64,000 bases of DNA from an uncultured Nitrospirota bacterium (GCA_964570625.1 CAZMYW010000006.1:420-64419), one strand, 5' to 3'; positions 24,525-41,154 are shown, numbered from the stretch's first letter. The notes: generated by a model not told the origin, from the letters alone. Program-made: numbers and translations.

Positions 24525-25847
24525 GTGTTGCAAATCAAACAATTTGTCCAGCGCGATCTCTGGACCACCGACCTTCGGTCGCTCTCCGTCGTGCCGCGCG
24601 TGGGCGTTCAGGCCATGCGCCTGGCCATCGCGGTGTCCCTGGAATTTCGCCATCGCTTGCTCGATGCCCGGGCCGCCGGCCTGGTCTACACCACCCTGCT
24701 GTCGCTGGTGCCGTTCCTCGCCGTGGTGTTTTCGGTGTTGAAGGGCTTCGGCGCGCACCACCAGATCGAACCCGTGTTGGCGCAGGTGCTGGAGCCGTTG
24801 GGCCCGAAGGGACAGGAAATCACCCAGCAGGTGATCGGGTTCGTGGACAACCTCAAAGTCGGGGTCCTCGGGGTGCTCGGGGTCGCGGGCCTCTTGTACA
24901 CCGCCTACTCGCTCATCGATAAGATCGAACAGTCGCTGAACGCGATCTGGCAGGTGCGCCGGGGACGATCCTGGACGCGCAAGTTCACCGACTATTTGAG
25001 CGTGCTGCTGGTCGGGCCGGTGCTGGTGGTCACGGCCCTGGGCCTGCTGGCGTCGGTCCAAAGCCAAACCCTGGTCCAACGCGTGATGGCATTCCAACCG
25101 CTGGGATCGTGGGTGGTTGCGCTGGCCCAGTTGGTCCCGTTTCTCCTGCTCGCCGTGGTCTTTGCGTTCATCTACAAGTTCGTACCCAACACCCGGGTCC
25201 ATTTTGCCTCGGCCCTGGTGGGCGGAATATCCGCCGCCGCGTTGTGGGGTCTGGCGGGCATGGCATTCGCGAAATTCGTCGCGGGATCGGGCCAATACGG
25301 CGCCATCTACTCCGGCTTCGCGATCGTGCTGTTGTTGCTGATCTGGCTCTACGCCGCGTGGCTGATCGTGCTGGTCGGCGCCCAGGTGGCGTTTTTCCAT
25401 CAACATCCGGCCGCGTATCAATCCACGTTGATGTGGCAACAACACACTTCTGCCCTGCGGGAACAGGTGGCCCTGAGAGTAGTGGCCGCGCTGACGCGAC
25501 GGTTTCTGGACGGCGCAGGCCCGGTTCGTGCGGCCGATCTGGCCAACGAACTCAACCTTCCGGCCTCCTTGGTGGAAGCGCAGGTGGACCAACTCGTGAC
25601 GCACGGCTTTCTCGGCCGCCTGAGCGAACCTGCCGGCGTGACCCTGATCAAACCACCCGACACCACGCCCATCAACGACGTGCTCGACGCGGTTCGGGAG
25701 GTCAAAGCCTCCGAAGTCATGATTCCGAACCACGCACACGACCCCATCACCGATGCGCTGCGCCGCCGCGATCAAGCCGCTGAACAAGCCCTCGCCGGGC
25801 TCACCCTGGAATCCTTGGTAACCGAACGTAATGATTCGGCACGATGA
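24525..25847 (+). CDS. YihY/BrkB-family inner-membrane protein with a ~130-aa C-terminal extension
   Basis: The family-typical N-terminus and six TM segments are present (AGLVYTTLLSLVPFLAVVFSVL...). Confidence 0.75.
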   Translation: MLQIKQFVQRDLWTTDLRSLSVVPRVGVQAMRLAIAVSLEFRHRLLDARAAGLVYTTLLSLVPFLAVVFSVLKGFGAHHQIEPVLAQVLEPLGPKGQEITQQVIGFVDNLKVGVLGVLGVAGLLYTAYSLIDKIEQSLNAIWQVRRGRSWTRKFTDYLSVLLVGPVLVVTALGLLASVQSQTLVQRVMAFQPLGSWVVALAQLVPFLLLAVVFAFIYKFVPNTRVHFASALVGGISAAALWGLAGMAFAKFVAGSGQYGAIYSGFAIVLLLLIWLYAAWLIVLVGAQVAFFHQHPAAYQSTLMWQQHTSALREQVALRVVAALTRRFLDGAGPVRAADLANELNLPASLVEAQVDQLVTHGFLGRLSEPAGVTLIKPPDTTPINDVLDAVREVKASEVMIPNHAHDPITDALRRRDQAAEQALAGLTLESLVTERNDSAR

Positions 25848-25938: not shown

Positions 25939-26497
<559 letters not shown>

Positions 26498-27010: not shown

Positions 27011-28045
27011 ATGAGTAAGATGAAGGTAGTCCAGGTCACCAAACCCAAGGGTCCCTTTGAACTCGTGGAACGCGAGATCCCCGAGCCCGGACCCGGACAC
27101 GTGCGGATCAAGGTCCAGGCGTGCGGCATCTGCCACAGCGACATGTACACCAAAGACGGCCTCTGGCCCGGTATTCAATTCCCGCGAATTCCGGGACACG
27201 AAGTCGCCGGGGTGATCGATGCGTTAGGCCAGAGCGTCAACGGATGGACCGTTGGCCAGCGCGTGGGCGTGGGTTGGCACGGCGGCCACTGCGGGTACTG
27301 CGATTCGTGCCGCCGCGGCGAATTCGTGACCTGCCAAATCGAAAACACCGTCACCGGCATCTCCCGCGACGGCGGCTACGCCGAATACATGATCGCCCAC
27401 GAAGGAACCCTGGCCAAAATCCCCGACGCCCTCACTCCTGAAGAAGCCGCGCCCTTGATGTGCGCCGGCGTTACCACCTACAACTCCCTGCGCAACAGCG
27501 GCGCGAGGGCCGGCGATACCGTGGCCGTGCTGGGCTTAGGCGGTCTCGGCCACCTGGGCGTGCAGTACGCGAACAACATGGGCATGAGAACCATTGCCCT
27601 GGCGCGGGGCAAAGATAAAGAACCCTTGGCCAAGAAACTCGGCGCGCATCATTATATAGACAGCCAGGCCACAGACCCCGCGGCAGAACTGATGAAGCTG
27701 GGCGGAGCCAGCATCATCCTGTCCACGGTCACGGACGCCAAAGCCGTGAACGCGGTCATGGGTGGATTGGGCCTGAACGGAAAACTCGTCATCGTAGGCG
27801 CCCCGCACGAACCCCTCTCCGTGTCCCCCGGTTTCCTCATCGGAGGACGCCGATCCATTGCGGGCTGGCCCTCCGGCTCGTCCATCGATTCGCAGGACAC
27901 GCTGGCGTTCAGCGCCTTGACTGGCGTGCGGTCAATGAACGAGGTCTTCCCTCTGGAGCGCGCATCAGAGGCCTACGATCACATGATGAGCGGCAAGGCA
28001 CGGTTTCGAGTCGTTCTGACAACCGGACCACAGGGTCGGTCGTGA
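27011..28045 (+). CDS. Zinc-dependent alcohol dehydrogenase (MDR family)
   Basis: GHEVAGVIDALG, the structural-zinc Cys cluster CGYCDSCRRGEFVTC, and the GLGGLGHLGVQYA Rossmann motif are present. Confidence 0.85.
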   Translation: MSKMKVVQVTKPKGPFELVEREIPEPGPGHVRIKVQACGICHSDMYTKDGLWPGIQFPRIPGHEVAGVIDALGQSVNGWTVGQRVGVGWHGGHCGYCDSCRRGEFVTCQIENTVTGISRDGGYAEYMIAHEGTLAKIPDALTPEEAAPLMCAGVTTYNSLRNSGARAGDTVAVLGLGGLGHLGVQYANNMGMRTIALARGKDKEPLAKKLGAHHYIDSQATDPAAELMKLGGASIILSTVTDAKAVNAVMGGLGLNGKLVIVGAPHEPLSVSPGFLIGGRRSIAGWPSGSSIDSQDTLAFSALTGVRSMNEVFPLERASEAYDHMMSGKARFRVVLTTGPQGRS

Positions 28046-28314: not shown

Positions 28315-31300
28315 ATGACAACTCGCTTGTTTTCGGTTCGAGGCCTCGTCCTCGTGGCCTTCTTGTCGATCACCTGTTCGTCCGGACAGGCGCAAACGCC
28401 CGATAGCCCCAGCGACGCGGCGATCCGGCAGGTGGATGAACTCTCCGCATTGTGGAGCTTCTACAAGCACACCTACATCGCGACCGGACGCGTGATCAGT
28501 TTGGACGAACAGGGCGTCACCACATCCGAAGGGCAAGGCTACGCCATGCTCCGCGCGGTGTGGTCGAACGATCGGATCACCTTTGCGGACGCCTGGAATT
28601 GGACGAAGCAGCATCTTCAGGTCCGGAGCGATCACCTCTTTGCCTGGAAGTGGAAAGGCAAAGTGCTCTCGCTCAATTCCGCCACTGACGCCGACACCGA
28701 CATTGCCCTGGCGCTGATTCTGGCCTCGCGGCGGTTTTCCGAGCCCGCCTATGAACAAGCGGCGCTGGACGTGCTGGATTCCATTTGGAACAAGGAAATT
28801 GCGAAGATCGGTCGTCAGTATTATGTGACCGCTGGAAACTGGGCGGTCCAGGAAGACTATCCCACGATTCATGTCGCGTACCTGGCCCCGTACGCGTATG
28901 AGATCTTCGCGAGCGTGGACGACCGATATCCGTGGAAACGGTTAGTTGACAGCTCTTATCAGATCCTCGAGTGGATCTATTCCGAGCAAAGGTTGCAGCT
29001 CCCACCGGAGATTCTGTTTCTCGATAAACAGACCGGCCGGTTCCTCTTGAAGCACCCCCGCACCGGAGCGTCGGCGTCCTTTGGTTACGACGCGTTTCCG
29101 ATCTTCTGGCGGGTCGCGCTGGATGCCCAGTGGTTCGGTCGGCCCCAGAGCGAGCTTCGTCGCACCATGCTCGCATTCTTTCAAGACGAGTGGCGAGCCC
29201 GCAAGGCATTCTCCGATCGGTACTCGATTGGTGGTCAGCCGCTGTCTCGGATCGAAGGGCTTCCCCTCTACGCCACGGTCCACGCACTCGCCCTCCAGGA
29301 GGACCAAGCCCTTGCCCGCCTCATCGGCAACGCGAAGCTGGACACGCTTCGTCAGAACGCGCTGGGCGGCCGCGCGACGCCCTATTACCTGCACAACTGG
29401 CTGTGGTTCGGGCGCGCCTTCGAACTCCAAGCGTTGCGGACGTACGATGAATTTCTGGGATTTCTGCGCCCGTTCGATTTCAAAGGATTCTCGGCTCACT
29501 TCCCGTGGGCGCTGTTCGCGGTGACGATCGCCCTCTTTTTCCTCGCCCGCGTTCATCCCCGTTTCAAGCTCGCCTTTCTGGTGTGCGGCTTCGCTCTCTG
29601 CGGGTACTACCTCGTCTGGCGCCTCTTCAACACGCTGAACTTCGTGGAAACCGCGGGACCGTTTATCAGCCTCTCGTTATGGGGGGCGGAATTGTATGCT
29701 TTTTCAACCGTGCTGCTGCTCCTCGTGCAGGTGGGGCTGGGCGGAAAGCAGAAGACGCATAATGCGCCGCCGCTGCCGGGATACTCGCCATCCGTCGACA
29801 TCCTGATTCCGATTTATCCCGAATCGTGCGAGATCCTCACGAAAACGCTGGTTGCGGCCCGCGCCATCGAGTACGCAAACAAGCGCGTCTACGTGCTGGA
29901 TGACGGCCACCGCCCCGAGGTGGCCCGCGTCGCGGGGCGATTCGGCGCCACATACATCAAAGGACCGCGAACGCACGCCAAAGCCGGCAATCTCAACCAT
30001 GCGTTGGACCAAACGCAGGGCGAGCTCGTGGCGGTGTTCGATACCGATCACATTCCCGTGACCACGTTCTTGAAAGAGACCGTGCCATTCTTTGCCGATC
30101 CCAAGATGGCGGTGGTACAGACCCCGCACCACTTTTACAACCCGGACATCTTCCAGCGGGCGTTCGGGGGCAGCGAGCAGATTCCGAACGAACAGGACAT
30201 GTTCAATCACGCGATTCAGAACGGGAGGGATGCCTGGAACGGGGCGTTCTTCGTCGGGAGCGGCGCCGTGTTCCGGCGCTCGGCCCTCGCCGACGTCAAC
30301 GGCTTCAATCTCATGAGCATGACGGAGGACATCCACACCAGCCAGCATCTGCACGCCGCAGGATGGCGCTCGGCGTTTCTCGATAAGGACCTGGCGGTCG
30401 GGCTCGCGGCCGAGAATCTGTCGTCGTATCTGGGGCAACGGAGACGCTGGATGCTCGGCTGCCTGCAGATCTTCTTCAAGGACAATCCCTTGATCCGCCG
30501 AGGCCTGACAACACGGCAACGGCTGGGTTATTTCGCGTCGCTCTACTATTTCTTCTTTCCGGTGACCCGGATGGTGTTCTGGATCACCCCTCTCTATTTT
30601 CTGCTGTTCCATTTCCATCCCATTCTCTCGGACGTCTCGGTCCTGGTCGCGTACTTGCTGCCCTTCATCATCATCCTGCCGCTGATCGCGAGCACGCTCT
30701 TGCCAGGCTGGCCGCGACTGTTCTGGGCCTCGGTGTATGAAGCCACGGTCAGCTTTCAGCTCTTTCGGTCCATGTTCGATCTCTTCCTGCCCAAACGACT
30801 GGGCTTCAAGGTCACCCCGAAGGGATTGCGGTCCCACACGCGGGCGTTCGACTCCACCTCCGCGACCCTGCCCCTCATCGCGACCGGGATCACGCTCGTG
30901 GCGATCGCCAAAGGCCTGTGGGAGTTCTTCTACTTCGGCATCGAAAAGGACGCCTACTTTTTCAACCTGAGCTGGGCCTCGCTCAACCTGTTGTTCCTAC
31001 TCGTCGGCCTCTTGGTCGCCTGGGAACGACCGCAGCAACGAAGCGCGGACCGGATCAAGAAGTCGGTGCCGTTCGAGCTGGAGCGCGCCGGTGTGTCGCT
31101 GACGGGAACCACCCACGACCTCAGCTTGTCCGGGCTCTCGTTCATGACCGCGTTAAACGAGCCCATCCCGCTGTTCGGGGAGATCACCCTCCGCGACCGC
31201 GACCCGATCACGTGCCGGTATCAGGTCGTGTACCATGAACGCGTCTCGCGCCGAGCGTCCCGGTGCGGGGTCGCGTTTCTGGATGTGTCTCACGATGACC

Positions 31301-31755
31301 GATGCAAGCTGATCGTCGATCTATTTGCCGATTCGGGAACCTGGAATGGGGCTCATGCAACCCGAGTGCGCAGCAATTTACTGATGGCCTTCCATCTGTT
31401 CCGAGGCATCGTGCGATGCCTGCGACCCTTGCAACGCCGCACCCGAACCTGCCCGCGGCGCAAGACCTTGCGCCGCATCTCGGTGCGGGTCGGGAGTGAC
31501 CAGCGGCACGTGCTCTTGAGAGACTGGTCGTCACGCGGGATCGGAATCCTGCACATCGGCAAGGAATGGCCTTCGACCACGGAGAGCGGGCTGTCGGCTG
31601 ACCGCTTCCACGACACACCGTTCCAAGAGGTCTATCAAAAACAGCTGCTGCCCCATGTGTGGCGCGTCGGGCTGCGCGTCGCCACTCGCCCCGTCGGTGA
31701 GGCGATCCCCGCTCCCGTGCAAGGGCGTGAGATGGCCTTGCACCAGGACCGTTAG
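28315..31755 (+). CDS. Multidomain exopolysaccharide synthase: GH8 BcsZ-like endoglucanase, TM region, processive GT2 (BcsA-like, QRRRW) and two C-terminal PilZ domains
   Basis: There is a signal peptide. GH8 motifs are present (TSEGQGYAMLRAV, DADTDIALALILA). GT2 motifs are present (VLDDGHRPE, VFDTDHIP, LGQRRRWMLG). PilZ #1 has RSADR...DLSLSG and PilZ #2 has RRKTLRR...DWSSRG. Confidence 0.8.
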   Translation: MTTRLFSVRGLVLVAFLSITCSSGQAQTPDSPSDAAIRQVDELSALWSFYKHTYIATGRVISLDEQGVTTSEGQGYAMLRAVWSNDRITFADAWNWTKQHLQVRSDHLFAWKWKGKVLSLNSATDADTDIALALILASRRFSEPAYEQAALDVLDSIWNKEIAKIGRQYYVTAGNWAVQEDYPTIHVAYLAPYAYEIFASVDDRYPWKRLVDSSYQILEWIYSEQRLQLPPEILFLDKQTGRFLLKHPRTGASASFGYDAFPIFWRVALDAQWFGRPQSELRRTMLAFFQDEWRARKAFSDRYSIGGQPLSRIEGLPLYATVHALALQEDQALARLIGNAKLDTLRQNALGGRATPYYLHNWLWFGRAFELQALRTYDEFLGFLRPFDFKGFSAHFPWALFAVTIALFFLARVHPRFKLAFLVCGFALCGYYLVWRLFNTLNFVETAGPFISLSLWGAELYAFSTVLLLLVQVGLGGKQKTHNAPPLPGYSPSVDILIPIYPESCEILTKTLVAARAIEYANKRVYVLDDGHRPEVARVAGRFGATYIKGPRTHAKAGNLNHALDQTQGELVAVFDTDHIPVTTFLKETVPFFADPKMAVVQTPHHFYNPDIFQRAFGGSEQIPNEQDMFNHAIQNGRDAWNGAFFVGSGAVFRRSALADVNGFNLMSMTEDIHTSQHLHAAGWRSAFLDKDLAVGLAAENLSSYLGQRRRWMLGCLQIFFKDNPLIRRGLTTRQRLGYFASLYYFFFPVTRMVFWITPLYFLLFHFHPILSDVSVLVAYLLPFIIILPLIASTLLPGWPRLFWASVYEATVSFQLFRSMFDLFLPKRLGFKVTPKGLRSHTRAFDSTSATLPLIATGITLVAIAKGLWEFFYFGIEKDAYFFNLSWASLNLLFLLVGLLVAWERPQQRSADRIKKSVPFELERAGVSLTGTTHDLSLSGLSFMTALNEPIPLFGEITLRDRDPITCRYQVVYHERVSRRASRCGVAFLDVSHDDRCKLIVDLFADSGTWNGAHATRVRSNLLMAFHLFRGIVRCLRPLQRRTRTCPRRKTLRRISVRVGSDQRHVLLRDWSSRGIGILHIGKEWPSTTESGLSADRFHDTPFQEVYQKQLLPHVWRVGLRVATRPVGEAIPAPVQGREMALHQDR

Positions 31756-31772
31756 ATCCCAGAGGGCTCTTC

Positions 31773-33350
31773 TTGGATTGGAGGAATACGCTTTTTGCGC
31801 TGTTGATGGTTCTCGCCATGCTCCTCAGTGCCGCCACTGCGTCCGCGGCAGGGTTCAGTGAATCCTGGTACATGTACCGGGGAAACGCCAACATCGAGAT
31901 CGGCAACTATAAGGCGGCCATCGAAGCCTTTGAAAAGGTCCTGGAGCTAAACCCGGACAATCGGGAAGCCATGCGAAGCCTTGGCCTGTCCTACGAGCGA
32001 CAAGGCTTGAAGGATAAATCTATCGAGCTGTTCGATCGTTATCTCCAGAAGTACGATGACGACCCGGAGATTGCCTTCAAACAAGCCGAAGCCCTGGAGT
32101 GGTCACGGTACGCGTACCGCGAAAAAGACGCCCTGAAATATTACCGGATGGGGCTGAAGCGACGAGATGACCCCAAACGGCGTCTCAAATACGCCTCACA
32201 TCTGGCCAAAACCCGGGAAACCAGCCAGGAAGCGGTGGTTCAGTACGAGCGGGTCATTGCGGTGCAGCCCCGCAATGCGGAGGCGCACCGCGGCCTTGCG
32301 AAAGCCCACGCCTGGCTCGGCGACCGCGACCGCGCCCTCTATCACGCGAACCTGGCGGACCGCTACGCGATGACGGAGACCGGCGATCTGACCGCGCTGC
32401 GCCGCGATATGACGAAGGGGCGCGAACCGACCCTTGAAGGCATCGTCGGATTCCTCGCTCAGCCCCAAGACCCCTTCGAGTTATATGCAGTCCGGCTGGG
32501 CTCGCGCGTCAAAGGCGACCTGACCCCGTTCACCACCACCACGCTCGAAGCCGGTCTCGAGTACTTTGGGGATTCATCCGAAAAGTCGACCGGCGGATAT
32601 CTTGCGTTCGGAACCCAGGCCCGCTTCAATCCGTCCAATCGAATCAATGGCATGTTGGAGTATCACGGCGCCGCGCTGGCCAATCCTCTGGCCTACACCC
32701 TTGAGTACACGTATGCCGCGGCGTCGTTCTCGTTTCGCCCGGGCGTCAAACGCGCGCTCAAATACGATTCCCTCCCCGCGCTAGTGGGGAGTCGGGTCTC
32801 CGGCCAACTCATCGGCGCCGCGCGCTCAACCTTGTTCTACACCGACCTGGCCGTTTCCAAAGGCAGCCTCCAGGTCAACGCCACGCCGTTTGCCGGCTGG
32901 GTCGACGGCGAGTCGCTCGCCAACAACGGGCAGGTGGGGCTGGATGCGAAAGTGGCCATGCCGTTCTGGAGCCGTGACACCTGGAACGTGTCCGGCGAAT
33001 ACCTCTTGTACCTGACCCACTACGCCAACGACCAATCAGAGTTCGATACCGGCGCGGCCCCCCTGGCCGGCTATTTCAGCCCCCGCCTGTTCGTCAATCA
33101 GACCCCGCGCCTGGTGGCCACGTACGTCTCACCCACCAAGAACGAGCTATCCGTGGCAGCAGGCCCGTCGATTCAGTATATCGACGAAGCCAGGAACGAC
33201 CCCGCGCTTCGAATCGGCGCGGATGCGCACGTCTCGTACACCGCCCGCGTGCCGGACCGCTTGCTCCTCAAATTCATGGCAGATCTAACCCAGATCACCG
33301 GCATCCAGACGCGCGTCCAGTTGCAGGGGCTCCTGGTGTACACGTTCTGA
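31773..33350 (+). CDS. TPR-repeat outer-membrane beta-barrel protein (BcsC/PgaA-like polysaccharide export porin, compact)
   Basis: A signal peptide and N-terminal TPR repeats are present (AIEAFEKVLELNPDNREAMRSLGLSYERQG). The C-terminal beta-strand-rich region ends in ...LLVYTF. Confidence 0.65.
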   Translation: MDWRNTLFALLMVLAMLLSAATASAAGFSESWYMYRGNANIEIGNYKAAIEAFEKVLELNPDNREAMRSLGLSYERQGLKDKSIELFDRYLQKYDDDPEIAFKQAEALEWSRYAYREKDALKYYRMGLKRRDDPKRRLKYASHLAKTRETSQEAVVQYERVIAVQPRNAEAHRGLAKAHAWLGDRDRALYHANLADRYAMTETGDLTALRRDMTKGREPTLEGIVGFLAQPQDPFELYAVRLGSRVKGDLTPFTTTTLEAGLEYFGDSSEKSTGGYLAFGTQARFNPSNRINGMLEYHGAALANPLAYTLEYTYAAASFSFRPGVKRALKYDSLPALVGSRVSGQLIGAARSTLFYTDLAVSKGSLQVNATPFAGWVDGESLANNGQVGLDAKVAMPFWSRDTWNVSGEYLLYLTHYANDQSEFDTGAAPLAGYFSPRLFVNQTPRLVATYVSPTKNELSVAAGPSIQYIDEARNDPALRIGADAHVSYTARVPDRLLLKFMADLTQITGIQTRVQLQGLLVYTF

Positions 33351-33489
33351 TCACCGACTCGTGATCCGGGAGGCGTCAAGGCCAGAATCTTGACATCCCG
33401 ATCAGGATGCGCGCAGAGTAACGCCCATGGCTCGACCGCTCGGAATCGACTATCCGGGCGCCGTCGACCACGTGAGCGGTGTCCTGATG

Positions 33490-33693
33490 GGCGGACGCCG
33501 ATCCATCACGGGCTGGCCGTCCGGATCGTCTATCGATTCGCAGGACACGCTGGCGTTCAGCGCCCTGACGGGCGTGCGGTCGATGAACGAGGTTTTCCCT
33601 CTGGAGCGCGCATCAGAGGCCTATGATCGGATGATGAGTGGCAAGGCACGGTTCCGAGTCGTGCTCACAACCGGGCATCACAGCGGGTCCTGA
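33490..33693 (+). pseudogene. Orphan 3'-terminal fragment of a zinc alcohol dehydrogenase gene (diverged duplicate of 27840-28045)
   Basis: About 90% nucleotide and about 93% amino-acid identity to the last ~65 codons of the ADH at 27011-28045, with no upstream ADH sequence. Confidence 0.7.
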
Positions 33694-33840
33694 GACGAAA
33701 AGACCTTATCCCAACGCAAGGCCTGGTCCTCAGTCCCCCACTGAATCGAGGGAGCTACCCTCAGAAGCCTAGTTTGGAATCCACCGATAGAGCCCTCTAG
33801 GCTGAGTAGAGTCGGGCTCGTATCTTGGAGCGGGCATCCA

Positions 33841-36800
33841 GTGCCTTCTCCCAACCTTCAAACAAAAGTACTTCGACGCAAGACCACGCCAGAGGAGTAC
33901 CGCGTGTATCGGGCGGGCCTCGAATGGGACTTAACCGATCCCATAGTTATCGAGACGCGCAAGGACCTGAAATCTGAATATCTTTGGCGTGACCGGATGG
34001 AGCCCTATCATCATCAGGTCACAAATCTCATCACCTTCTGCCGCCGCCTGCCGGTCACGCTGCTCGCCGACGACGTCGGTCTCGGCAAAACGATTAGCGC
34101 CGGGCTGATCATCAGCGAGCTAATCTCCCGCTCCCGTCTTTCCAGGATTCTTATTGTCTGCCCCAAGCTGCTCGGCCCGCAGTGGCAGGAGGAACTGCTC
34201 ACGAAATTCAACATTCCTTCTGAGATTGCGATCGGGAGAGACCTGATCAAAGCTGATCCCGAGGGAACCGGTGCCGTCATCACAACCTATCATTCGGCGC
34301 GCCTGCATCTCGATCCAATCCCGAAGGATCGTTTCCAGATGCTGGTGTTGGATGAGGCGCACAAGCTGCGAAACCTCTATGGCGTCGAAAAACCCCCGCA
34401 GGTGGCCAAGCGTTTCCGGAAGGCCCTGGAAGAGCGCCGGTTTCGCTTCGTCCTTATGCTGACCGCGACGCCGATACAGAACCGCCTGTGGGATCTCTAT
34501 TCGTTGGTCGATCTGTTGACCGTTGCGCGTGGGCACCAAAACCCCTTTGGCAGCGAGGACATGTTTGCTCGGAAGTTCATCGCCGACAATCGGGAGCAGA
34601 CCCGCCAGTTGAAGCCGGAAGCGCGCGACGAGTTCCGATCGATTGTCTACGGCTACATGTCGAGGGTCCGGCGCGGAGACGCCAGGCTCTATTTCCCGGA
34701 CCGAGTCGTGCAAATGCACAAGGTCGACCCCACAGCGGCAGAGTTGCAGCTGATCGACGCTATCGCCAAGCCGATCCAGAAACTGAACCGGCTCGCGCAA
34801 ATTTCGATCCTGCAGGCTCTCACTAGTAGCCCAGATGCGTTGATGGCACAGTTGAACAACATGGCAAAGAACGGCACTGTTCCTGAGGAGCTTGCCGCGA
34901 CGGTCCGCGCCATCGTCACCGGAATGCCCACCAGCGCCAAGCTTCATGGGCTCGGCGGGCTGATCGACAGACTAAAACGGGAGAATCCGGAACGCTGGCG
35001 GCTCGTCGTATTCACAGGACGGCTAGAGACCCAGACCACCATCCAAGCCTTCCTGGAAAAGTACGGCCTCAAGGTCGGGATAATCAACGGTATGTCCGGC
35101 CCGCGTAATCAGGAGACCATCACGCGTTTCAGAAAAAACCCGCCTGATTCCCACGTTATCGTGTCTACCGAAGCTGGATCCGAGGGCATCAACCTTCAAG
35201 TCGCCAACGTACTGGTCAACTACGACCTGCCCTGGAACCCAATGATCGTCGAACAGCGTATCGGACGCGTACAACGCTTGGCGTCCGAGCATGCGAGCGT
35301 CGGTATTTTCAACATCATGCTGCGTGGTACCTTCGAGGAGTACATCGTTGGACGCTTGATGGAAAAACTTCAGATGGCGTCCCACGCGATCGGCGATATT
35401 GAATCGCTGCTCGAAGCATCCGGAATCAGTGGAGAGGATGAGGACGGGGCAACGAGCTTTGACGAGAAGATCCGCCAGCTCGTCATAGCGGCGCTCGCAG
35501 GCAAGGACGTGGAGGCAGCAACACGCCAGGAGGAGCAAAGTATTGCCAATGCGAAGAGCGCTCTGGAGCGCGAGGAAGAGAGCATCAACACCCTACTCGG
35601 CGGAATGGATGGAGCCGAGTATGTCGGACCTCGCGCGCCGGCCCTGCCCGGCGTCGTGCGATCTATGGAGCCGCGCGATTTCACTCTGGCAGCCTTAAGG
35701 AGTCTTGGCGCGCGTATCACGCCGCAACCGCCGGATCTGTATCTGGCGGAAGGAAACGGCGGACGTGAACACATCCGTTTTGAGGAAAACGCTGGCGCAG
35801 GCGTAAAAAGCACCCTCTACGCTCCCGGCACTGCCGCCTTCATCCGGCTAGTCGGTCGGATCATTGCAACCGGCGTTTATGAAGTAGAAGACCTCGACCA
35901 AAATCCAGCCAAAGAGGCCGAGGAACTCGCCCGCCGGTGGGTCCTGGCCTTCAGCGGAACGCCCAAGGCAGTAGAGGTCGAAGAGGTGCGCCGTTGTTTC
36001 GAAGGGACGGCTCTCGTCCGAGTGCGCGCCACGGTTGCGCATGACAGCTATGAGCGCCTCGTGGAAGTTTCCTGTTCATCGGCAGAGTACTATGCTGATA
36101 CAGGCCGATCAGGGCTTGGCCCCTTGTCTCAGACAATTGAGAATCCCAACGCCCTTGGGATCAACATCGACAGATTGGCTGACGCTGCAAAATTGGATGG
36201 GGCAATCTCCGAATTCTCCCGCTTCTACTTGGAAAGGCGAGCACAGGAAATGCAGGCCGCAGCCGGGGATGAGCGGAAAAAAAAGAGGCTAGAGGATGAG
36301 TTCACCCCCCGCCTTGAAATGACGCTGGTTGCGCTCGAAGGAAGGCTGCACCGCCAGCTAAGAGTTAAAGCGCAATACACGCTTGATGCTGAAGCCGATT
36401 ACCATAGTTTGCTGACCGTTATACCGCATACGGGAAGATGGGTCGATGCTCCAGAAATGGGGCTCTGCGCTCGATCGGGCAAGACTGTTCCTAAGACGTG
36501 CCTCAAGCAATGTCAGATCGCGGGGGCGGTGGTGCTGCAGCATCTCCTCGCCCGGTCCGAGATGAGTTCAAGGCTTGCGCTGCCGGAATTTACGGTCCTG
36601 TGCAGCCTAAGTGGCAAGCGCGTTCTCAAGGACGAAGCCGAGTTGTCAACGGTGAGTAGACAGCTGGTCGCAAGCTCACTCCTTAAGACTTCGGTTCTAA
36701 GCGGGCAGCGGGCAGAACCCAGTCATTTTGGTCAGTGCGAATTTACTAAAGCCGAGGTTCTCAATACCGAGCTTGCCATTAGCGAAGTGTCGGGTAAGCG

Positions 36801-37539
36801 CTATCGCGTCGATGAGCAAGTGCGATCGGTTGTTTCTGGAAAGACGGGCCACAGGTCGGAGTTTCTGATCTGCCATGAGACCCGACAGCCCTTAATTGTG
36901 TCGGAAGCCGAGCAATGCAGGGTCACCGGTATGTACGTTCGGCCGGGAATCTTGGAGCCATGTGCGATCACGCAGACGCGGGTACTGCCCTCGGAGCTTG
37001 AGCGTTGCGCTGCTACCGGCAAGCGCGCGCTAAAGAAGCTGTTGGTGACGAGCAGCTTGTCGGAAGCGCGCATTCTGGAGGATGTTGCTGTGCGGTCGGC
37101 TACTGGAAAATTTTGTGCGCCGGTTGAAACCAAGACTTGTCTTTGGAGTGGCCGGAAGTGCCATCCAGATGATCTTCGCGCGTGCGCGCTGACTGGCCTT
37201 CCTATCCACTTTGAATTTGCCACGACAAATGGTAAACCCCGTCTCCAGCCGCTTGTCGACCTGCTCAACGGCATCAAGAGAACCGCGGACGAGCCCAAGT
37301 TGTGGGACACCGTAGCGACCGAGATCACAGCGAAACTCGGGAAGGGGTGGTGCCGTGTGGAGGCTGCGGTTCTTTCACCAGATAGGCGGCATCTTGCAGT
37401 CTGCTCCGAGGTCCGTACGTTGCTCGGCTTCCGGGTGAATCAAGCTGGTTTGGTGTACGCCATCGGAGACCATTCCATCCTTGGTCGAACGGCTCAAGGG
37501 CGTCGTACTTCCGAGGGATGGTCAGAGGTCAAAAGCTAG
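33841..37539 (+). CDS. SNF2-family helicase (RapA/HepA-like ATPase core) with a ~600-aa C-terminal domain containing ~10 tandem Cys-rich 16-17-aa repeats
   Basis: SNF2 motifs I (LLADDVGLGKT), II (LVLDEAHKLRN) and III (LMLTATPIQN) are present, with a helicase C domain (VSTEAGSEGINLQ, QRIGRVQR). The C-terminal repeats follow the pattern [CS]xx[ST]GK[RT]. An alternative start is ATG 33997 (MEPYHHQ). Confidence 0.8.
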   Translation: MPSPNLQTKVLRRKTTPEEYRVYRAGLEWDLTDPIVIETRKDLKSEYLWRDRMEPYHHQVTNLITFCRRLPVTLLADDVGLGKTISAGLIISELISRSRLSRILIVCPKLLGPQWQEELLTKFNIPSEIAIGRDLIKADPEGTGAVITTYHSARLHLDPIPKDRFQMLVLDEAHKLRNLYGVEKPPQVAKRFRKALEERRFRFVLMLTATPIQNRLWDLYSLVDLLTVARGHQNPFGSEDMFARKFIADNREQTRQLKPEARDEFRSIVYGYMSRVRRGDARLYFPDRVVQMHKVDPTAAELQLIDAIAKPIQKLNRLAQISILQALTSSPDALMAQLNNMAKNGTVPEELAATVRAIVTGMPTSAKLHGLGGLIDRLKRENPERWRLVVFTGRLETQTTIQAFLEKYGLKVGIINGMSGPRNQETITRFRKNPPDSHVIVSTEAGSEGINLQVANVLVNYDLPWNPMIVEQRIGRVQRLASEHASVGIFNIMLRGTFEEYIVGRLMEKLQMASHAIGDIESLLEASGISGEDEDGATSFDEKIRQLVIAALAGKDVEAATRQEEQSIANAKSALEREEESINTLLGGMDGAEYVGPRAPALPGVVRSMEPRDFTLAALRSLGARITPQPPDLYLAEGNGGREHIRFEENAGAGVKSTLYAPGTAAFIRLVGRIIATGVYEVEDLDQNPAKEAEELARRWVLAFSGTPKAVEVEEVRRCFEGTALVRVRATVAHDSYERLVEVSCSSAEYYADTGRSGLGPLSQTIENPNALGINIDRLADAAKLDGAISEFSRFYLERRAQEMQAAAGDERKKKRLEDEFTPRLEMTLVALEGRLHRQLRVKAQYTLDAEADYHSLLTVIPHTGRWVDAPEMGLCARSGKTVPKTCLKQCQIAGAVVLQHLLARSEMSSRLALPEFTVLCSLSGKRVLKDEAELSTVSRQLVASSLLKTSVLSGQRAEPSHFGQCEFTKAEVLNTELAISEVSGKRYRVDEQVRSVVSGKTGHRSEFLICHETRQPLIVSEAEQCRVTGMYVRPGILEPCAITQTRVLPSELERCAATGKRALKKLLVTSSLSEARILEDVAVRSATGKFCAPVETKTCLWSGRKCHPDDLRACALTGLPIHFEFATTNGKPRLQPLVDLLNGIKRTADEPKLWDTVATEITAKLGKGWCRVEAAVLSPDRRHLAVCSEVRTLLGFRVNQAGLVYAIGDHSILGRTAQGRRTSEGWSEVKS

Positions 37540-37675
37540 TGGCTCCTCACGCGCCACGGTAAAGCGCCATAGGCGCGAGTACGATCCGGTAGCAAGGGTA
37601 AAGCCGGTCGCGGCGTGGATCGACCGCGATGAAGGTCAGAGAGCCAATTCCACTATTCCGTTGGGGGAGGCCCAC

Positions 37676-39355
37676 GTGGATAAGGAAACTGCTTTCGCTA
37701 GAGCGACTTCGGGGGGTTCGCAAGTTCCTGAAGATTGGATGCCAGCAACGGGAACACGTGCTTTTGTATTTGAGGATCCTATTCTCATTTGGCTGGAATT
37801 TCACGGCGAAGCGAATGGATTTCAGAAAGACGCCTCATCGCCCTACGATTTCATGACGTTTATCTTCGAAAAGGGAAGGCAGTTCGAAAATAAGTGGATT
37901 TCTGAATTTGCTCCAGAGGCAATACGCGTTTGCTCGCACGCGTATGAGGTTCGCCGAGTCGAAAGATTCCACCAAACACTCGACCTTATTGAGCGCGGCA
38001 CTCCGGTTATCGCAGGCCCCGCTCTTTGGTGGGCTCCAGAAAAAATATTGGGAGTCCCGGACCTTTTGGTGCGGAGTGACTGGCTTAGTAAGCGCTTACC
38101 GAATACCCGTGTTCAATCAGAATCGGCTGAGCATTACGTGGTGTTGGACATGAAATTCACGACGAAACTCGACTCGACAGAGAAAAAGTTGTCGTTTTCG
38201 AACTACGAGGCACAGGTGAGAATCTACTCTTACATAGTCGGCCAGCTTACGGGTGTAATGGCCCCCCACTCCTTTCTAGTTTGCCGCGACCGGATCGACA
38301 ATCCGCTCGATGTCCCGACCCATTCAGCCATCGGTCCTCTTGATGAGGATCTCCGTAGATTCCGCGAATCTTACCTCGACATTAAGCTCAAGGGTGGCGC
38401 GTACCGACCGGGAATAGACTCTCAGATTGCGGTGAACCTATCAAACGACCAAGATGATCCTTGGCATACGGCAAAGATCGAGATTGCAAGAAACCGAGTA
38501 CCCGGTGGTGACCCATGCCTCGTTTATGAAATCGGGGCGACACAGCGGCAGGCACTTGCAGACAGAGGATTCGGAAATCTGAAGGCCCTCATGGAAATTG
38601 TTCCGGAACAAATCCCTCTGGAATCTTGCAAGGGCCTCGGGGCTGCCAAATGTCCGCGAATCCGGGCCGTGCTGCGAGCAAACCAGACAGGAACGGTTAC
38701 CCGTAACAAACCAACGCGTCTGCCGGTTGAAAAGTCAGTCGAGCTTTACGTCGACTTCGAGACATTCAACAACCTCAACGTCAACTTCGACAGAGAATGG
38801 CCCACGCTCCAAGGCTGTGAAATGATCTTCATGATTGGTGTCGCATGGGTGGAGAACAATAGCTTGCGATATCAAGCGGTCATCGCCGATACCGAGAGCC
38901 AAGCAGGCGAACGTCGGCTTTTGGAAGATTTCGAGAAGCTCATTCGCTCCCGAACAAATGGTTCGACTGTCGATCCGTCATCCACGGCTCTGGTCCACTG
39001 GACAAGCGCCGAAGTCTGGCAGCTTAAACGGGCCTGTGACCGACAGGGCTTCGAGGCGAGTCATCCGCTCAGAAATCTCCCGTGGTTCGATCTTCAAAAG
39101 GAAGTCTTCCTCGCAGAACCAATCGGTGTCCCGGGGGCATGGGGTTACGGAATTAAAGAGGTTGTGCTTTCGCTAGGACTACTCCAATGGCCTGGGGATC
39201 TGGATGACGGTCTCCGCGCCAGTGTCGCCGGATGGAAAGGTTATCAATCAAGCAAACCCCTTGAGTCTTCCGATATGCAGATCGTGGTGCAGTACAACGA
39301 GGTGGATTGCAACGCACTACACGAAGTCGTGAAGTGGCTTCGCCGATCGGCCTGA
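37676..39355 (+). CDS. RecB-family PD-(D/E)xK nuclease fused to a C-terminal RNase-H-like (DnaQ-type) domain (TM0106-like)
   Basis: The nuclease motifs are GVPDLLVRSD and VVLDMKFTTK (D...D-x-K). The C-terminal domain begins YVDFETFNN (DxE). The start was set at GTG 37676, which follows a strong SD (GGGGGAGG) and avoids overlap with the SNF2 gene. Confidence 0.65.
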   Translation: MDKETAFARATSGGSQVPEDWMPATGTRAFVFEDPILIWLEFHGEANGFQKDASSPYDFMTFIFEKGRQFENKWISEFAPEAIRVCSHAYEVRRVERFHQTLDLIERGTPVIAGPALWWAPEKILGVPDLLVRSDWLSKRLPNTRVQSESAEHYVVLDMKFTTKLDSTEKKLSFSNYEAQVRIYSYIVGQLTGVMAPHSFLVCRDRIDNPLDVPTHSAIGPLDEDLRRFRESYLDIKLKGGAYRPGIDSQIAVNLSNDQDDPWHTAKIEIARNRVPGGDPCLVYEIGATQRQALADRGFGNLKALMEIVPEQIPLESCKGLGAAKCPRIRAVLRANQTGTVTRNKPTRLPVEKSVELYVDFETFNNLNVNFDREWPTLQGCEMIFMIGVAWVENNSLRYQAVIADTESQAGERRLLEDFEKLIRSRTNGSTVDPSSTALVHWTSAEVWQLKRACDRQGFEASHPLRNLPWFDLQKEVFLAEPIGVPGAWGYGIKEVVLSLGLLQWPGDLDDGLRASVAGWKGYQSSKPLESSDMQIVVQYNEVDCNALHEVVKWLRRSA

Positions 39356-39434
39356 AAAGGGGACGGGAAAGGTGTCAGGAACCATTTTAAAGATGGTCCT
39401 AATCTCCCACCAAGGGCAGCCTCGGGGGTCACAG

Positions 39435-40993: not shown

Positions 40994-41154
40994 CTCCACC
41001 CCCACAATGCGTTCAGCTCTGCCCCCGGTGGGATGCCCGGTTGACGGGTGCGGACGGCGCCTGCTATCGTGCGGCCATGTTGACGGAATCTCTGGATCTG
41101 CCCCATTAACACCCTGTGTCTCACCCGCGTGTGGTTCTCTGACACTGCGAAATC

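Follow-up and report, generated by a model that had tools for sequence, protein, structure and literature searches.

A SNF2-family ATPase with a tandem 15-residue repeat tail beside a dual nuclease: a possible mobile helicase-nuclease cassette in an uncultured Nitrospirota bacterium

Positions 33,841 to 39,355 of a 64,000-nucleotide stretch of DNA from an uncultured Nitrospirota bacterium (GCA_964570625.1 CAZMYW010000006.1:420-64419; the whole stretch is called the window here) hold two adjacent genes, the first (gene 1) encoding a SNF2-family ATPase with a repeat-bearing C-terminal half and the second (gene 2) a protein with two nuclease domains. The question raised by this locus is whether the two genes belong together and, if so, to what end. 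Our answer, plausible but tentative, is that they represent an unnamed, accessory and horizontally acquired cassette of a helicase and a nuclease in which the partners can be exchanged, comparable to those of anti-phage and anti-plasmid systems. Such a cassette is probably directed against mobile genetic elements. The defence role would be assigned by guilt by association, and we infer the cooperation of genes 1 and 2 in this genome, the function against mobile genetic elements and the role of the repeat.

The two proteins and the repeat tail

The initial annotation had read a complete SNF2 ATPase core in the 1232-residue product of gene 1, and both the profile matches and the translation bear this out. 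The two lobes score above the Pfam gathering cutoffs (SNF2-rel_dom, PF00176, residues 73-307, 3e-28, 99.1 bits against a cutoff of 24.9; Helicase_C, PF00271, residues 384-480, 9e-18, 65 bits against 23.5) and the helicase motifs are intact, with motifs I (DDVGLGKT), II (DEAH), III (TATP) and VI (QRIGRVQR) readable in the translation, which places the protein in the SNF2 family. The closest sequences in the PDB are the Sulfolobus SNF2/Rad54-like protein 1z63 (7e-27) and RapA (7e-24). In full-length homologs from 80 genomes, the ATPase half is 64-92% identical at the amino acid level and the C-terminal half 45-80%, and public annotation gives the family generic names ('helicase-related protein', 'DEAD/DEAH box helicase'). 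The middle region that follows the core carries the invariant motifs VAHDSYER, EFSRFYLERR and KLEDEFTPRL.

Beyond this region lies an array of 17 tandem units, each of exactly 15 residues, which in the register layout covers residues 876-1130 (255 residues), with the column consensus [CS]-x-[VLI]-[ST]-G-[KR]-x-[VA]-L-x-[SD]-E-L-x-x and a one-residue slip in the register around residues 1086-1100. The BLOSUM62 autocorrelation of the protein peaks at lags 15, 30 and 45 (z = 9.2, 7.5 and 7.0; 1000 shuffles) and is negative in the segments sampled from the remainder of the protein, to about residue 810; residues 561-875 and 1131-1232 are made up of non-repeat helices and alpha+beta domains. The tandem repeat claimed at first is thus real and conserved, as the lag-15 signal and the homologs attest, but its dimensions have to be corrected, since it does not consist of about 10 units of 16-17 residues spread over some 600 residues.

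Across 60 homologs the repeat region is kept at 45-80% amino acid identity, and 12 Cys of the region are invariant or nearly so, with no more than one Cys per unit, placed in a knuckle-like C-x2-[ST]-G motif. Some homologs have extra canonical units (e.g., ...C-x-[VA]-[ST]-G-K-R-V-L-x-S-E-L-E-x...). The C-terminal domain (CTD) is a real, selected, family-specific domain and not low-complexity noise, and we refer to the gene family that carries it as SNF2-CTD. An AlphaFold2 (AF2) model of the C-terminal half, built on an alignment of 60 sequences, has a mean pLDDT of 88.4 and a pTM of 0.53, with the array itself at about 90-94. In this model, each 15-residue unit is predicted to form a 6-residue loop ([CS]xx[ST]G[KR]) followed by two 3-residue strands that are joined by a 3-residue turn, while long helix and helix-plus-curved-sheet domains are predicted around the array. 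The terminal alpha+beta domain (H592-606 and E610-669 in fragment numbering) has conserved W, G and R columns among the homologs.

The initial annotation did not recognize the repeat as any known domain, and the searches give the same picture. In Pfam, NCBIfam (June 2026), PADLOC 2.0 and PHROGs, the databases used for naming the tail and the family, the C-terminal 632 residues of gene 1 have no Pfam match even at E <= 10, the PHROG matches are confined to the helicase core with none for the CTD, and the PADLOC and NCBIfam matches likewise cover the core and leave the repeat region unmatched. A Foldseek search of the CTD model against the PDB gave no match at E <= 1e-3, and the repeat profile returned a single PDB sequence, MfpA, at E 0.011, with a domain-level E of 0.97 and a poor alignment. 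A nuclease hidden in the CTD was also considered and rejected, as aligning the CTD and nuclease families with hhalign gave a probability of 0.1%. We take the array to be a regular, beta-rich repeat without a detectable solved relative; it may have the shape of a solenoid or of a hairpin ribbon, and its Cys may form metal sites, in line with the zinc knuckles or ribbons raised in the initial annotation.

The repeat is far from confined to this genome. Searched against 1.84 billion representative proteins, the repeat-region profile matches at least 504 protein clusters at E <= 1e-3, 240 of them at E <= 1e-30, and nearly all full-length matches begin at about residue 870 of the protein, which indicates that the same SNF2 protein serves as the chassis. 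Array length varies: many of the matched proteins are 1350-2098 residues long with up to 11 matched stretches, and the 2098-residue one (P0241) has at least 44 motif units. No fusion of a TM0106-type nuclease to SNF2-CTD was seen in 147 representatives. In long arrays (P0241-P0387) the Cys units often alternate with Ser units, C-S-S making a 45-residue super-repeat, and some homologs have N-terminal extensions of 150-340 residues that are acidic or of low complexity. Here, then, is a conserved module present in hundreds of clusters, with no Pfam model and no solved relative, and its structure would probably be a new repeat fold.

Gene 2 most plausibly starts at the GTG at 37676, judging from its leader and its homologs: the Shine-Dalgarno-like GGGGGAGG lies 5 nt upstream and the product, at 559 residues, is exactly as long as the homologs nearest to it (93% and 82% identity), so that the strong Shine-Dalgarno and GTG start proposed at the outset stand. 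A TTG start at 37481 was rejected, because it would add an unconserved Arg-rich extension that overlaps gene 1 and is unsupported by the family alignment. The exact protein sequence is already on public record. Its description as a PD-(D/E)xK nuclease joined to a DnaQ/RNase-H-like domain agrees with the catalytic residues, with Pfam and with Foldseek. Among 60 homologs, D129, D158-x-K160 and Q180 are invariant and Y184 is conserved in at least 90% (QxxxY), so that the D, (D/E)xK and QxxxY motifs of the RecB family of PD-(D/E)xK nucleases are all present; in the second domain D360-x-E362, E446 and Y540-x3-D544 are invariant, and RNase_H_2 (PF13482) matches residues 372-555 with 32.1 bits against a cutoff of 22. 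Both active sites are intact in this single polypeptide. The AF2 model is compact (pLDDT 92.7, pTM 0.88), and Foldseek matches it to Cas4 (8d3l_I, probability 1.00), a DnaQ domain (8h18, 0.99), Dna2, RecE and lambda exonuclease, with TREX1 and RNase H folds as further matches of the exonuclease half. Gene 2 has no PADLOC, PHROG or PDB sequence match, and its subfamily lacks the four-Cys cluster of Cas4, C86 and C545 being the only conserved Cys in the 60 homologs. Full-length distant relatives of the dual nuclease (21-28% identity, about 540 residues) are also found in 75 IMG/VR viral contigs (L172-L246, many of them GVMAG), so the fusion of PD-(D/E)xK and DnaQ-like domains is not confined to bacteria.

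Gene-sized transfer and changing nuclease partners

A pattern scan over 185,579 species, each represented by one genome, yielded 132 confirmed relatives of SNF2-CTD. The best 80 of the 132, which make up the genome loci compared below, come from at least ten phyla: Nitrospirota, Planctomycetota, Acidobacteriota, Desulfobacterota, Alpha- and Gammaproteobacteria, Verrucomicrobiota/Lentisphaeria, Ignavibacteria, Elusimicrobia, Cyanobacteria and several Patescibacteria lineages. Nucleotide homology of the SNF2 gene to other phyla is 67-83% and is limited to 33815-37541, i.e. to the borders of the open reading frame (ORF), its left edge being no more than about 25 bp from the start codon and its right edge at the stop codon. 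With L010, L013, L014 and others (Planctomycetota, Acidobacteriota, a deltaproteobacterial metagenome-assembled genome) the identity is 77-83%, and identity of this order ending at the ORF borders implies a recent transfer of a single gene. These homology tracts mark the SNF2-CTD gene as accessory and as moving on its own, one gene at a time. The same holds for gene 2, whose copies of 88% and 82% nucleotide identity are homologous only over 37645/37666-39355/39360; in one of them (L171) the homology begins at 37645, so the leader of gene 2 travels with the gene. The GC content of the pair (0.557-0.586) is the minimum of the window, the outer parts of which are at 0.61-0.67, and the window flanks share no synteny with any of the fetched loci. 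No CTD relative was found among 72,556 plasmids and 50,697 phage records, nor among 2.9 million IMG/VR contigs, and neither protein had a tblastn match in the plasmid and phage collections. A transfer that is gene-sized and spans at least ten phyla, Patescibacteria among them, with about 70-83% nucleotide identity, is unusual and calls for a mechanism.

The association of the SNF2 gene with nucleases was followed by calling ORFs at all loci, counting as adjacent those genes within 400 bp, and using an iterated hidden Markov model built from the window nuclease and divergent clustered neighbours. A nuclease combining PD-(D/E)xK and RNase-H-like domains (TM0106-type) adjoins SNF2-CTD in 23 of the 80 loci, or in 15 of the 59 that have at least 2 kb on each flank. 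Nearly all of these nucleases (21 of 23) are co-directional with the SNF2 gene, 10 being upstream and 13 downstream, and most of the gaps are between -16 and +40 bp. They fall into at least three mutually divergent subfamilies, namely the L007 type, which has a Cas4-like Cys cluster, the L037 type and that of the window and L041; the Cas4-type four-Cys cluster is seen in the L007 and L037 relatives, and the subfamilies other than that of the window match Cas4 models. L041 has the same gene order as the window with a distant nuclease relative (27-30% identity). Superfamily 1 (SF1) helicases occur in three SNF2-CTD loci: they are fused to the nuclease (AAA_11/AAA_12) in L079 and L024, and in L002 the SF1 helicase is a gene of its own, placed between those for the nuclease and the SNF2 protein. 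Other neighbours are DUF2130 (6 loci), which is a PD-(D/E)xK family (PMC3424549), ParB_N-like (2 loci) and RmuC (1 locus). For so rare an architecture, adjacency in 23 of 80 loci is far beyond chance, and thus the link between SNF2-CTD and end-processing nucleases is real at the superfamily level.

A recurring cluster was also seen in L002 (4105-13525) and L041 (6439-15063), where DUF2130, ParB_N-like, TM0106-type nuclease and SNF2-CTD genes lie together, with an SF1 helicase in L002 only; between the two loci the DUF2130 products are 53% and the ParB_N-like products 73% identical. This cluster may be the 'full' version of the cassette.

The link does not amount to a fixed pair. The close Nitrospirota relatives of the SNF2 gene (L006, L007, L009) have an L007-type nuclease upstream, whereas the window has a different nuclease, placed downstream, and a fragment of an alcohol dehydrogenase (ADH) gene upstream. 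The pairing of helicase and nuclease put forward in the initial annotation survives as a link at the level of superfamilies and not as a fixed two-gene system, with each gene behaving like a cassette that is shuffled independently of the other. The nuclease family of the window likewise keeps other company. In 80 metagenome loci of this family, about nine have a different, 836-residue SNF2 protein immediately downstream, three have SF1 helicase matches, and about six have a STAND protein with Cap4-nuclease, NACHT and TPR domains upstream. In these last loci (L105/L129, 1815-6905, and related ones) the window-type nuclease stands directly 3' of the STAND protein, which is of about 1700 residues. 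In about eight loci it adjoins a conserved protein of about 600 residues of unknown function and a metallo-beta-lactamase-fold protein. Elsewhere the family is found beside QatABCD and in a toxin-antitoxin-rich island with an SF1 helicase. Of the two near-identical copies of gene 2, one (L170) has a 1485-residue SF1 helicase 22 bp downstream and the other (L171) an Mrr-like endonuclease upstream.

Several of our findings weigh against a helicase-nuclease cassette with a role in defence. About 70% of the SNF2-CTD loci (57 of 80) lack a nuclease next to the SNF2 gene, and the 122 immediate neighbours of SNF2-CTD genes include no further gene that is conserved. From the side of the nuclease, none of the 80 metagenome loci has a SNF2-CTD neighbour, and the homology tracts show genes 1 and 2 moving independently. 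Neither protein matches any PADLOC model along its full length. The immediate neighbours in the window are ordinary, with the ADH fragment upstream and a DUF748-like gene and the Tag glycosylase gene downstream, and the 45-80% amino acid identity of the CTD across phyla is unusually high for a defence sensor.

The same facts bear on the alternative that survives best, a chance juxtaposition, in which two independent single-gene accessory modules have come to lie side by side in a variable region. This would account for the gene-sized homology of each partner (33815-37541 and 37645-39360), for nuclease copies of 82-88% nucleotide identity that adjoin an SF1 helicase or an Mrr-like protein instead, for the absence of SNF2-CTD from the nuclease-family metagenome loci and of an adjacent nuclease from most SNF2-CTD loci, and for a gap between genes 1 and 2 (136 bp) that is wider than the -16 to +40 bp of most paired loci. 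What it does not explain well is that SNF2-CTD genes adjoin nucleases of so rare an architecture 23 times in 80, far above chance, these partners being drawn from three divergent subfamilies and mostly co-directional and nearly abutting, that L041 repeats the gene order of the window with a distant relative of its nuclease, or that the nuclease-SF1 helicase fusions adjoin the SNF2 gene in L079 and L024, tying the components together. Weighing the two sides, we consider chance juxtaposition rather unlikely.

If the two genes do form a cassette, a mode of action can be envisioned by analogy with ZorD, DISARM and the type I and III restriction enzymes, in which the motor would track DNA and the nuclease would degrade it. 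Other SNF2 enzymes track along double-stranded DNA without unwinding it, and the motor of gene 1 would be expected to do likewise. The repeat array would form a rigid, length-variable, beta-rich rod, as the periodicity of its predicted secondary structure suggests, and would offer a sensing or docking surface for the target or a partner; the tail of gene 1 is the obvious candidate for either task. The partner nuclease would then degrade the engaged DNA from ends or nicks in both polarities, 5'-3' by its RecB-like head and 3'-5' by its DnaQ-like head. Since this partner would be interchangeable, the SNF2 protein may act alone or with a partner encoded elsewhere.

A bolder version of the cassette reading, possible but doubtful to us, takes SNF2-CTD as the core of a new, widely transferred immune family directed against phages or plasmids, in which the array, with 17 to more than 40 units, would be a new beta-rich rod fold that works as a sensor or molecular ruler and the nucleases would be swappable effectors. 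The effectors, on that reading, would be the three TM0106-type subfamilies, DUF2130, RmuC and the nuclease-SF1 helicase fusions. The interest of the locus would be higher if the repeat were indeed a new fold acting as an immune sensor, and if the cassette restricts foreign DNA, it would be an unnamed SNF2-based defence system and would show clearly, in nature, how effectors can be swapped around a single motor.

Surroundings of the genes in the window and elsewhere

In other genomes, the surroundings of SNF2-CTD are variable and have a defence-rich flavour. In L003 the gene lies beside Wadjet (JetABCD), Fic and an integrase; a genuine DrmD is an immediate neighbour in two loci, and IetS and PDC-M54A are others; in L248 HsdR and a LexA/DnaE2 cassette stand beside it; and toxin-antitoxin genes adjoin it at some loci. 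Recombinases occur within 10 kb in 13 of the 80 loci (serine recombinases in 9, tyrosine integrases in 4), and at L001 and L247 insertion sequence (IS) elements lie beside the locus or interrupt it.

The immediate context in the window (Table 1) was examined by Pfam scans of the ORFs at 22-51 kb and by a scan for direct repeats in 20-52 kb. Two contextual arguments of the initial annotation fall away here. The pair had been placed between direct repeats, but the sole direct repeat in the scanned region (27829-28045 and 33477-33693; 217 nt, 87% identical) is a duplicated 3' end of the Zn-dependent ADH gene, an 88-residue ORF at 33427-33693 matching the C-terminal 63 residues of a model for aldehyde reductase. 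This repeat encloses the bcs-like genes (28315-33350), and its right copy ends 148 bp upstream of the SNF2 start. The pair had also been placed next to a toxin-antitoxin module, but BrnT lies 7.6 kb upstream of the SNF2 gene, with dut, adh and the bcs-like genes intervening. Arguments from an island thus do not apply to genes 1 and 2. The ORFs examined within about 10 kb of the pair include no recombinase or transposase; other ORFs at 22-51 kb include glycosyltransferases, and tag, for a 3-methyladenine glycosylase, is two genes downstream of the pair.

Table 1. Positions of the features in the window, counted from its first nucleotide
Feature	Position	Strand	Description or basis
Fused GH8-GT2-PilZ cellulose-synthase-like gene	28315-31755		
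BcsC-like TPR gene	31773-33350		
BrnT toxin gene	25972-26244		Pfam 3e-27; next to dut
Gene 1 (SNF2-CTD)	33841..37539	+	1232-aa SNF2-family ATPase with family-specific C-terminal half
SNF2 ATPase core of gene 1, aa ~47-520	33979..35400	+	Pfam and PDB sequence matches; motifs I-VI intact
Middle region of gene 1, aa 561-865	35521..36435	+	Long helix, then helix plus long beta-hairpin (alpha+beta) subdomains
Repeat array of gene 1, aa 876-1130	36466..37230	+	17 tandem 15-aa units
C-terminal alpha+beta domain of gene 1, aa 1136-1232	37246..37536	+	AF2 model: one helix and 5-stranded antiparallel sheet
Shine-Dalgarno-like GGGGGAGG	37663..37670	+	Read in sequence; 5 nt 5' of gene 2 GTG
Gene 2	37676..39355	+	559 aa: RecB/Cas4-like PD-(D/E)xK, helical linker, DnaQ/RNase-H-like exonuclease
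PD-(D/E)xK domain of gene 2, aa ~1-245	37676..38410	+	Invariant columns, Foldseek
DnaQ-like 3'-5' exonuclease domain of gene 2, aa ~350-559	38723..39352	+	Pfam PF13482, invariant columns, Foldseek

Some further features of the window deserve mention in their own right. The 5.4-kb bcs-like segment appears to have inserted into the 3' end of the ADH gene, carrying with it a replacement for that end, yet no integrase is present. An ORF that overlaps BrnT downstream, within the 25972-26497 module, is probably a BrnA-type antitoxin, with no Pfam match. At 24525-25847 a BrkB/YihY-type membrane domain is fused to an Rrf2-type regulator domain, an unusual combination. An imperfect 32-nt inverted repeat (33668-33699 and 41012-41043, 78% complementary) exactly brackets the SNF2, nuclease, DUF748-like and tag genes; it may be due to chance or represent paired terminator-like elements.

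These surroundings allow two further alternatives to be weighed. In the first, genes 1 and 2 would be an accessory DNA repair or recombination module, similar to MrfA/MrfB, that acts on damaged or broken host DNA. In support of this notion, the pairing of the MrfB exonuclease with a helicase offers a precedent (PMC11194089; bioRxiv 10.1101/426304), tag lies two genes downstream in the window and a Tag homolog about 5 kb downstream in L053, Ku and LigD are 5-8 kb upstream in Bradyrhizobium (L001), the LexA/DnaE2 cassette is found in L248, and the SNF2-CTD family is under strong purifying selection. However, the distribution is sparse and patchy (132 of 185,579 species) with transfer across phyla, repair neighbours are not conserved (Ku and LigD were found in that one genome only, and the window flanks are without synteny), the helicase is of the SNF2 and not the YprA/DUF1998 type, and many loci are flanked by integrases, IS elements, toxin-antitoxin genes or known defence systems. 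A repair module is therefore improbable in our view; were it a repair factor nonetheless, it would be a rare case of a mobile, accessory SNF2 repair enzyme. The second, that the genes serve a mobile element on integrative islands (in its maintenance, replication, anti-defence or competition with other elements) and not the host, can draw on the serine recombinases and tyrosine integrases within 10 kb of 9 and 4 loci, the IS elements at L001 and L247, the ParB_N-like and DUF2130 module of L002 and L041, and gene-sized transfer at high nucleotide identity, but it is very improbable given that the plasmid, phage and IMG/VR collections searched hold no CTD relative, that no recombinase or transposase was seen among the ORFs examined for about 10 kb around the pair in the window, and that most SNF2-CTD loci have no recombinase nearby.

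Comparison with known systems

The initial annotation had been unable to assign either protein to a named defence family, and comparison with the curated models leads to the same result: the PADLOC and NCBIfam matches of gene 1 cover its core only and lie far below the cutoffs, and the nuclease has none. DrmD, BrxHI/HII, DpdE, ZorD and HmaA have an ATPase core of the same superfamily, with best PADLOC/NCBIfam matches of 1e-53 to 1e-32, but these matches are restricted to the helicase core (66-186 bits against curated cutoffs of 500-1500), and none of these proteins has the 15-residue repeat tail. Taken singly, DISARM DrmD (NF038317/NF038318) gives 186 and 168 bits against cutoffs of 610 and 950, over core stretches only, and the ORFs at 22-51 kb include no drmA/drmB (DUF1998), drmC or methyltransferase gene; BREX BrxHI/BrxHII gives a PADLOC match of 1e-52 that is split into two core stretches, the best at residues 338-516, with no BREX neighbours; Zorya ZorD (NF041790), a SNF2 protein fused to an Mrr-like nuclease, gives 65.8 bits against a cutoff of 1500, and no similarity to a nuclease was detected in the CTD; and Dpd DpdE (NF041062) gives 169.6 bits against 500. 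DrmA/B, PglZ/PglX, ZorA/B and Dpd genes are all absent from the neighbours in the window (ORFs at 22-51 kb). RapA (NF003426), a SNF2 ATPase associated with RNA polymerase and, like the SNF2 core of Sulfolobus SSO1653, one of the nearest known counterparts, was rejected at 114.6 bits against a cutoff of 576. It is a core, vertically inherited gene, the product of which has N- and C-terminal domains that differ from those of gene 1.

For gene 2, the nearest architecture is that of the TM0106 family (TIGR03491)/PF13482, in which a Cas4/RecB-like PD-(D/E)xK domain is likewise followed by an exonuclease of RNase H fold. Membership of TIGR03491 was rejected at 32.5 bits against a cutoff of 97.45, the match covering model positions 216-462 only, and gene 2 belongs to a separate, divergent subfamily that shares this architecture. 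The top fold matches of its two halves are CRISPR prespacer trimmers, Cas4 (in Cas4-Cas1-Cas2) and the DnaQ domain of S. thermophilus. These trim ends in opposite polarities, and gene 2 would join both in one protein; however, sequence identity is about 11%, the E values are 1.6e-3 and 8.7e-3, and gene 2 is without the Fe-S Cys cluster. Gene 2 as a Cas4 was rejected for the want of the four-Cys cluster and of a PADLOC Cas4 match, and there are no cas genes among the ORFs examined nearby.

In MrfA/MrfB (YprA/YprB), a helicase gene also stands next to a gene for a DnaQ-superfamily exonuclease, MrfB, which is paired with the helicase in mitomycin repair (PMC11194089; bioRxiv 10.1101/426304). Membership in MrfAB was rejected, because gene 1 is a SNF2 protein with no DUF1998 match in Pfam. 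MrfA is a DUF1998 helicase of the YprA family whereas gene 1 is a SNF2 protein, MrfB lacks a PD-(D/E)xK domain, and mrfAB is broadly distributed with a repair phenotype while the SNF2-CTD family is rare and horizontally scattered. As for the array, its 15-residue unit might be divided into three segments of 5 residues, hydrophobic at positions 3, 8 and 13 and with small residues at 1 and 11, a layout that invites comparison with pentapeptide-repeat proteins (MfpA/Qnr) and other beta-solenoid repeat proteins. The literature searched on TM0106, on DUF2130 and on SNF2 with Cas4-like and anti-phage terms holds nothing describing the SNF2-CTD family. The family is thus unnamed in the databases and the literature searched, while the principle of a SNF2 motor working with a nuclease is a known one, common to ZorD and DISARM.

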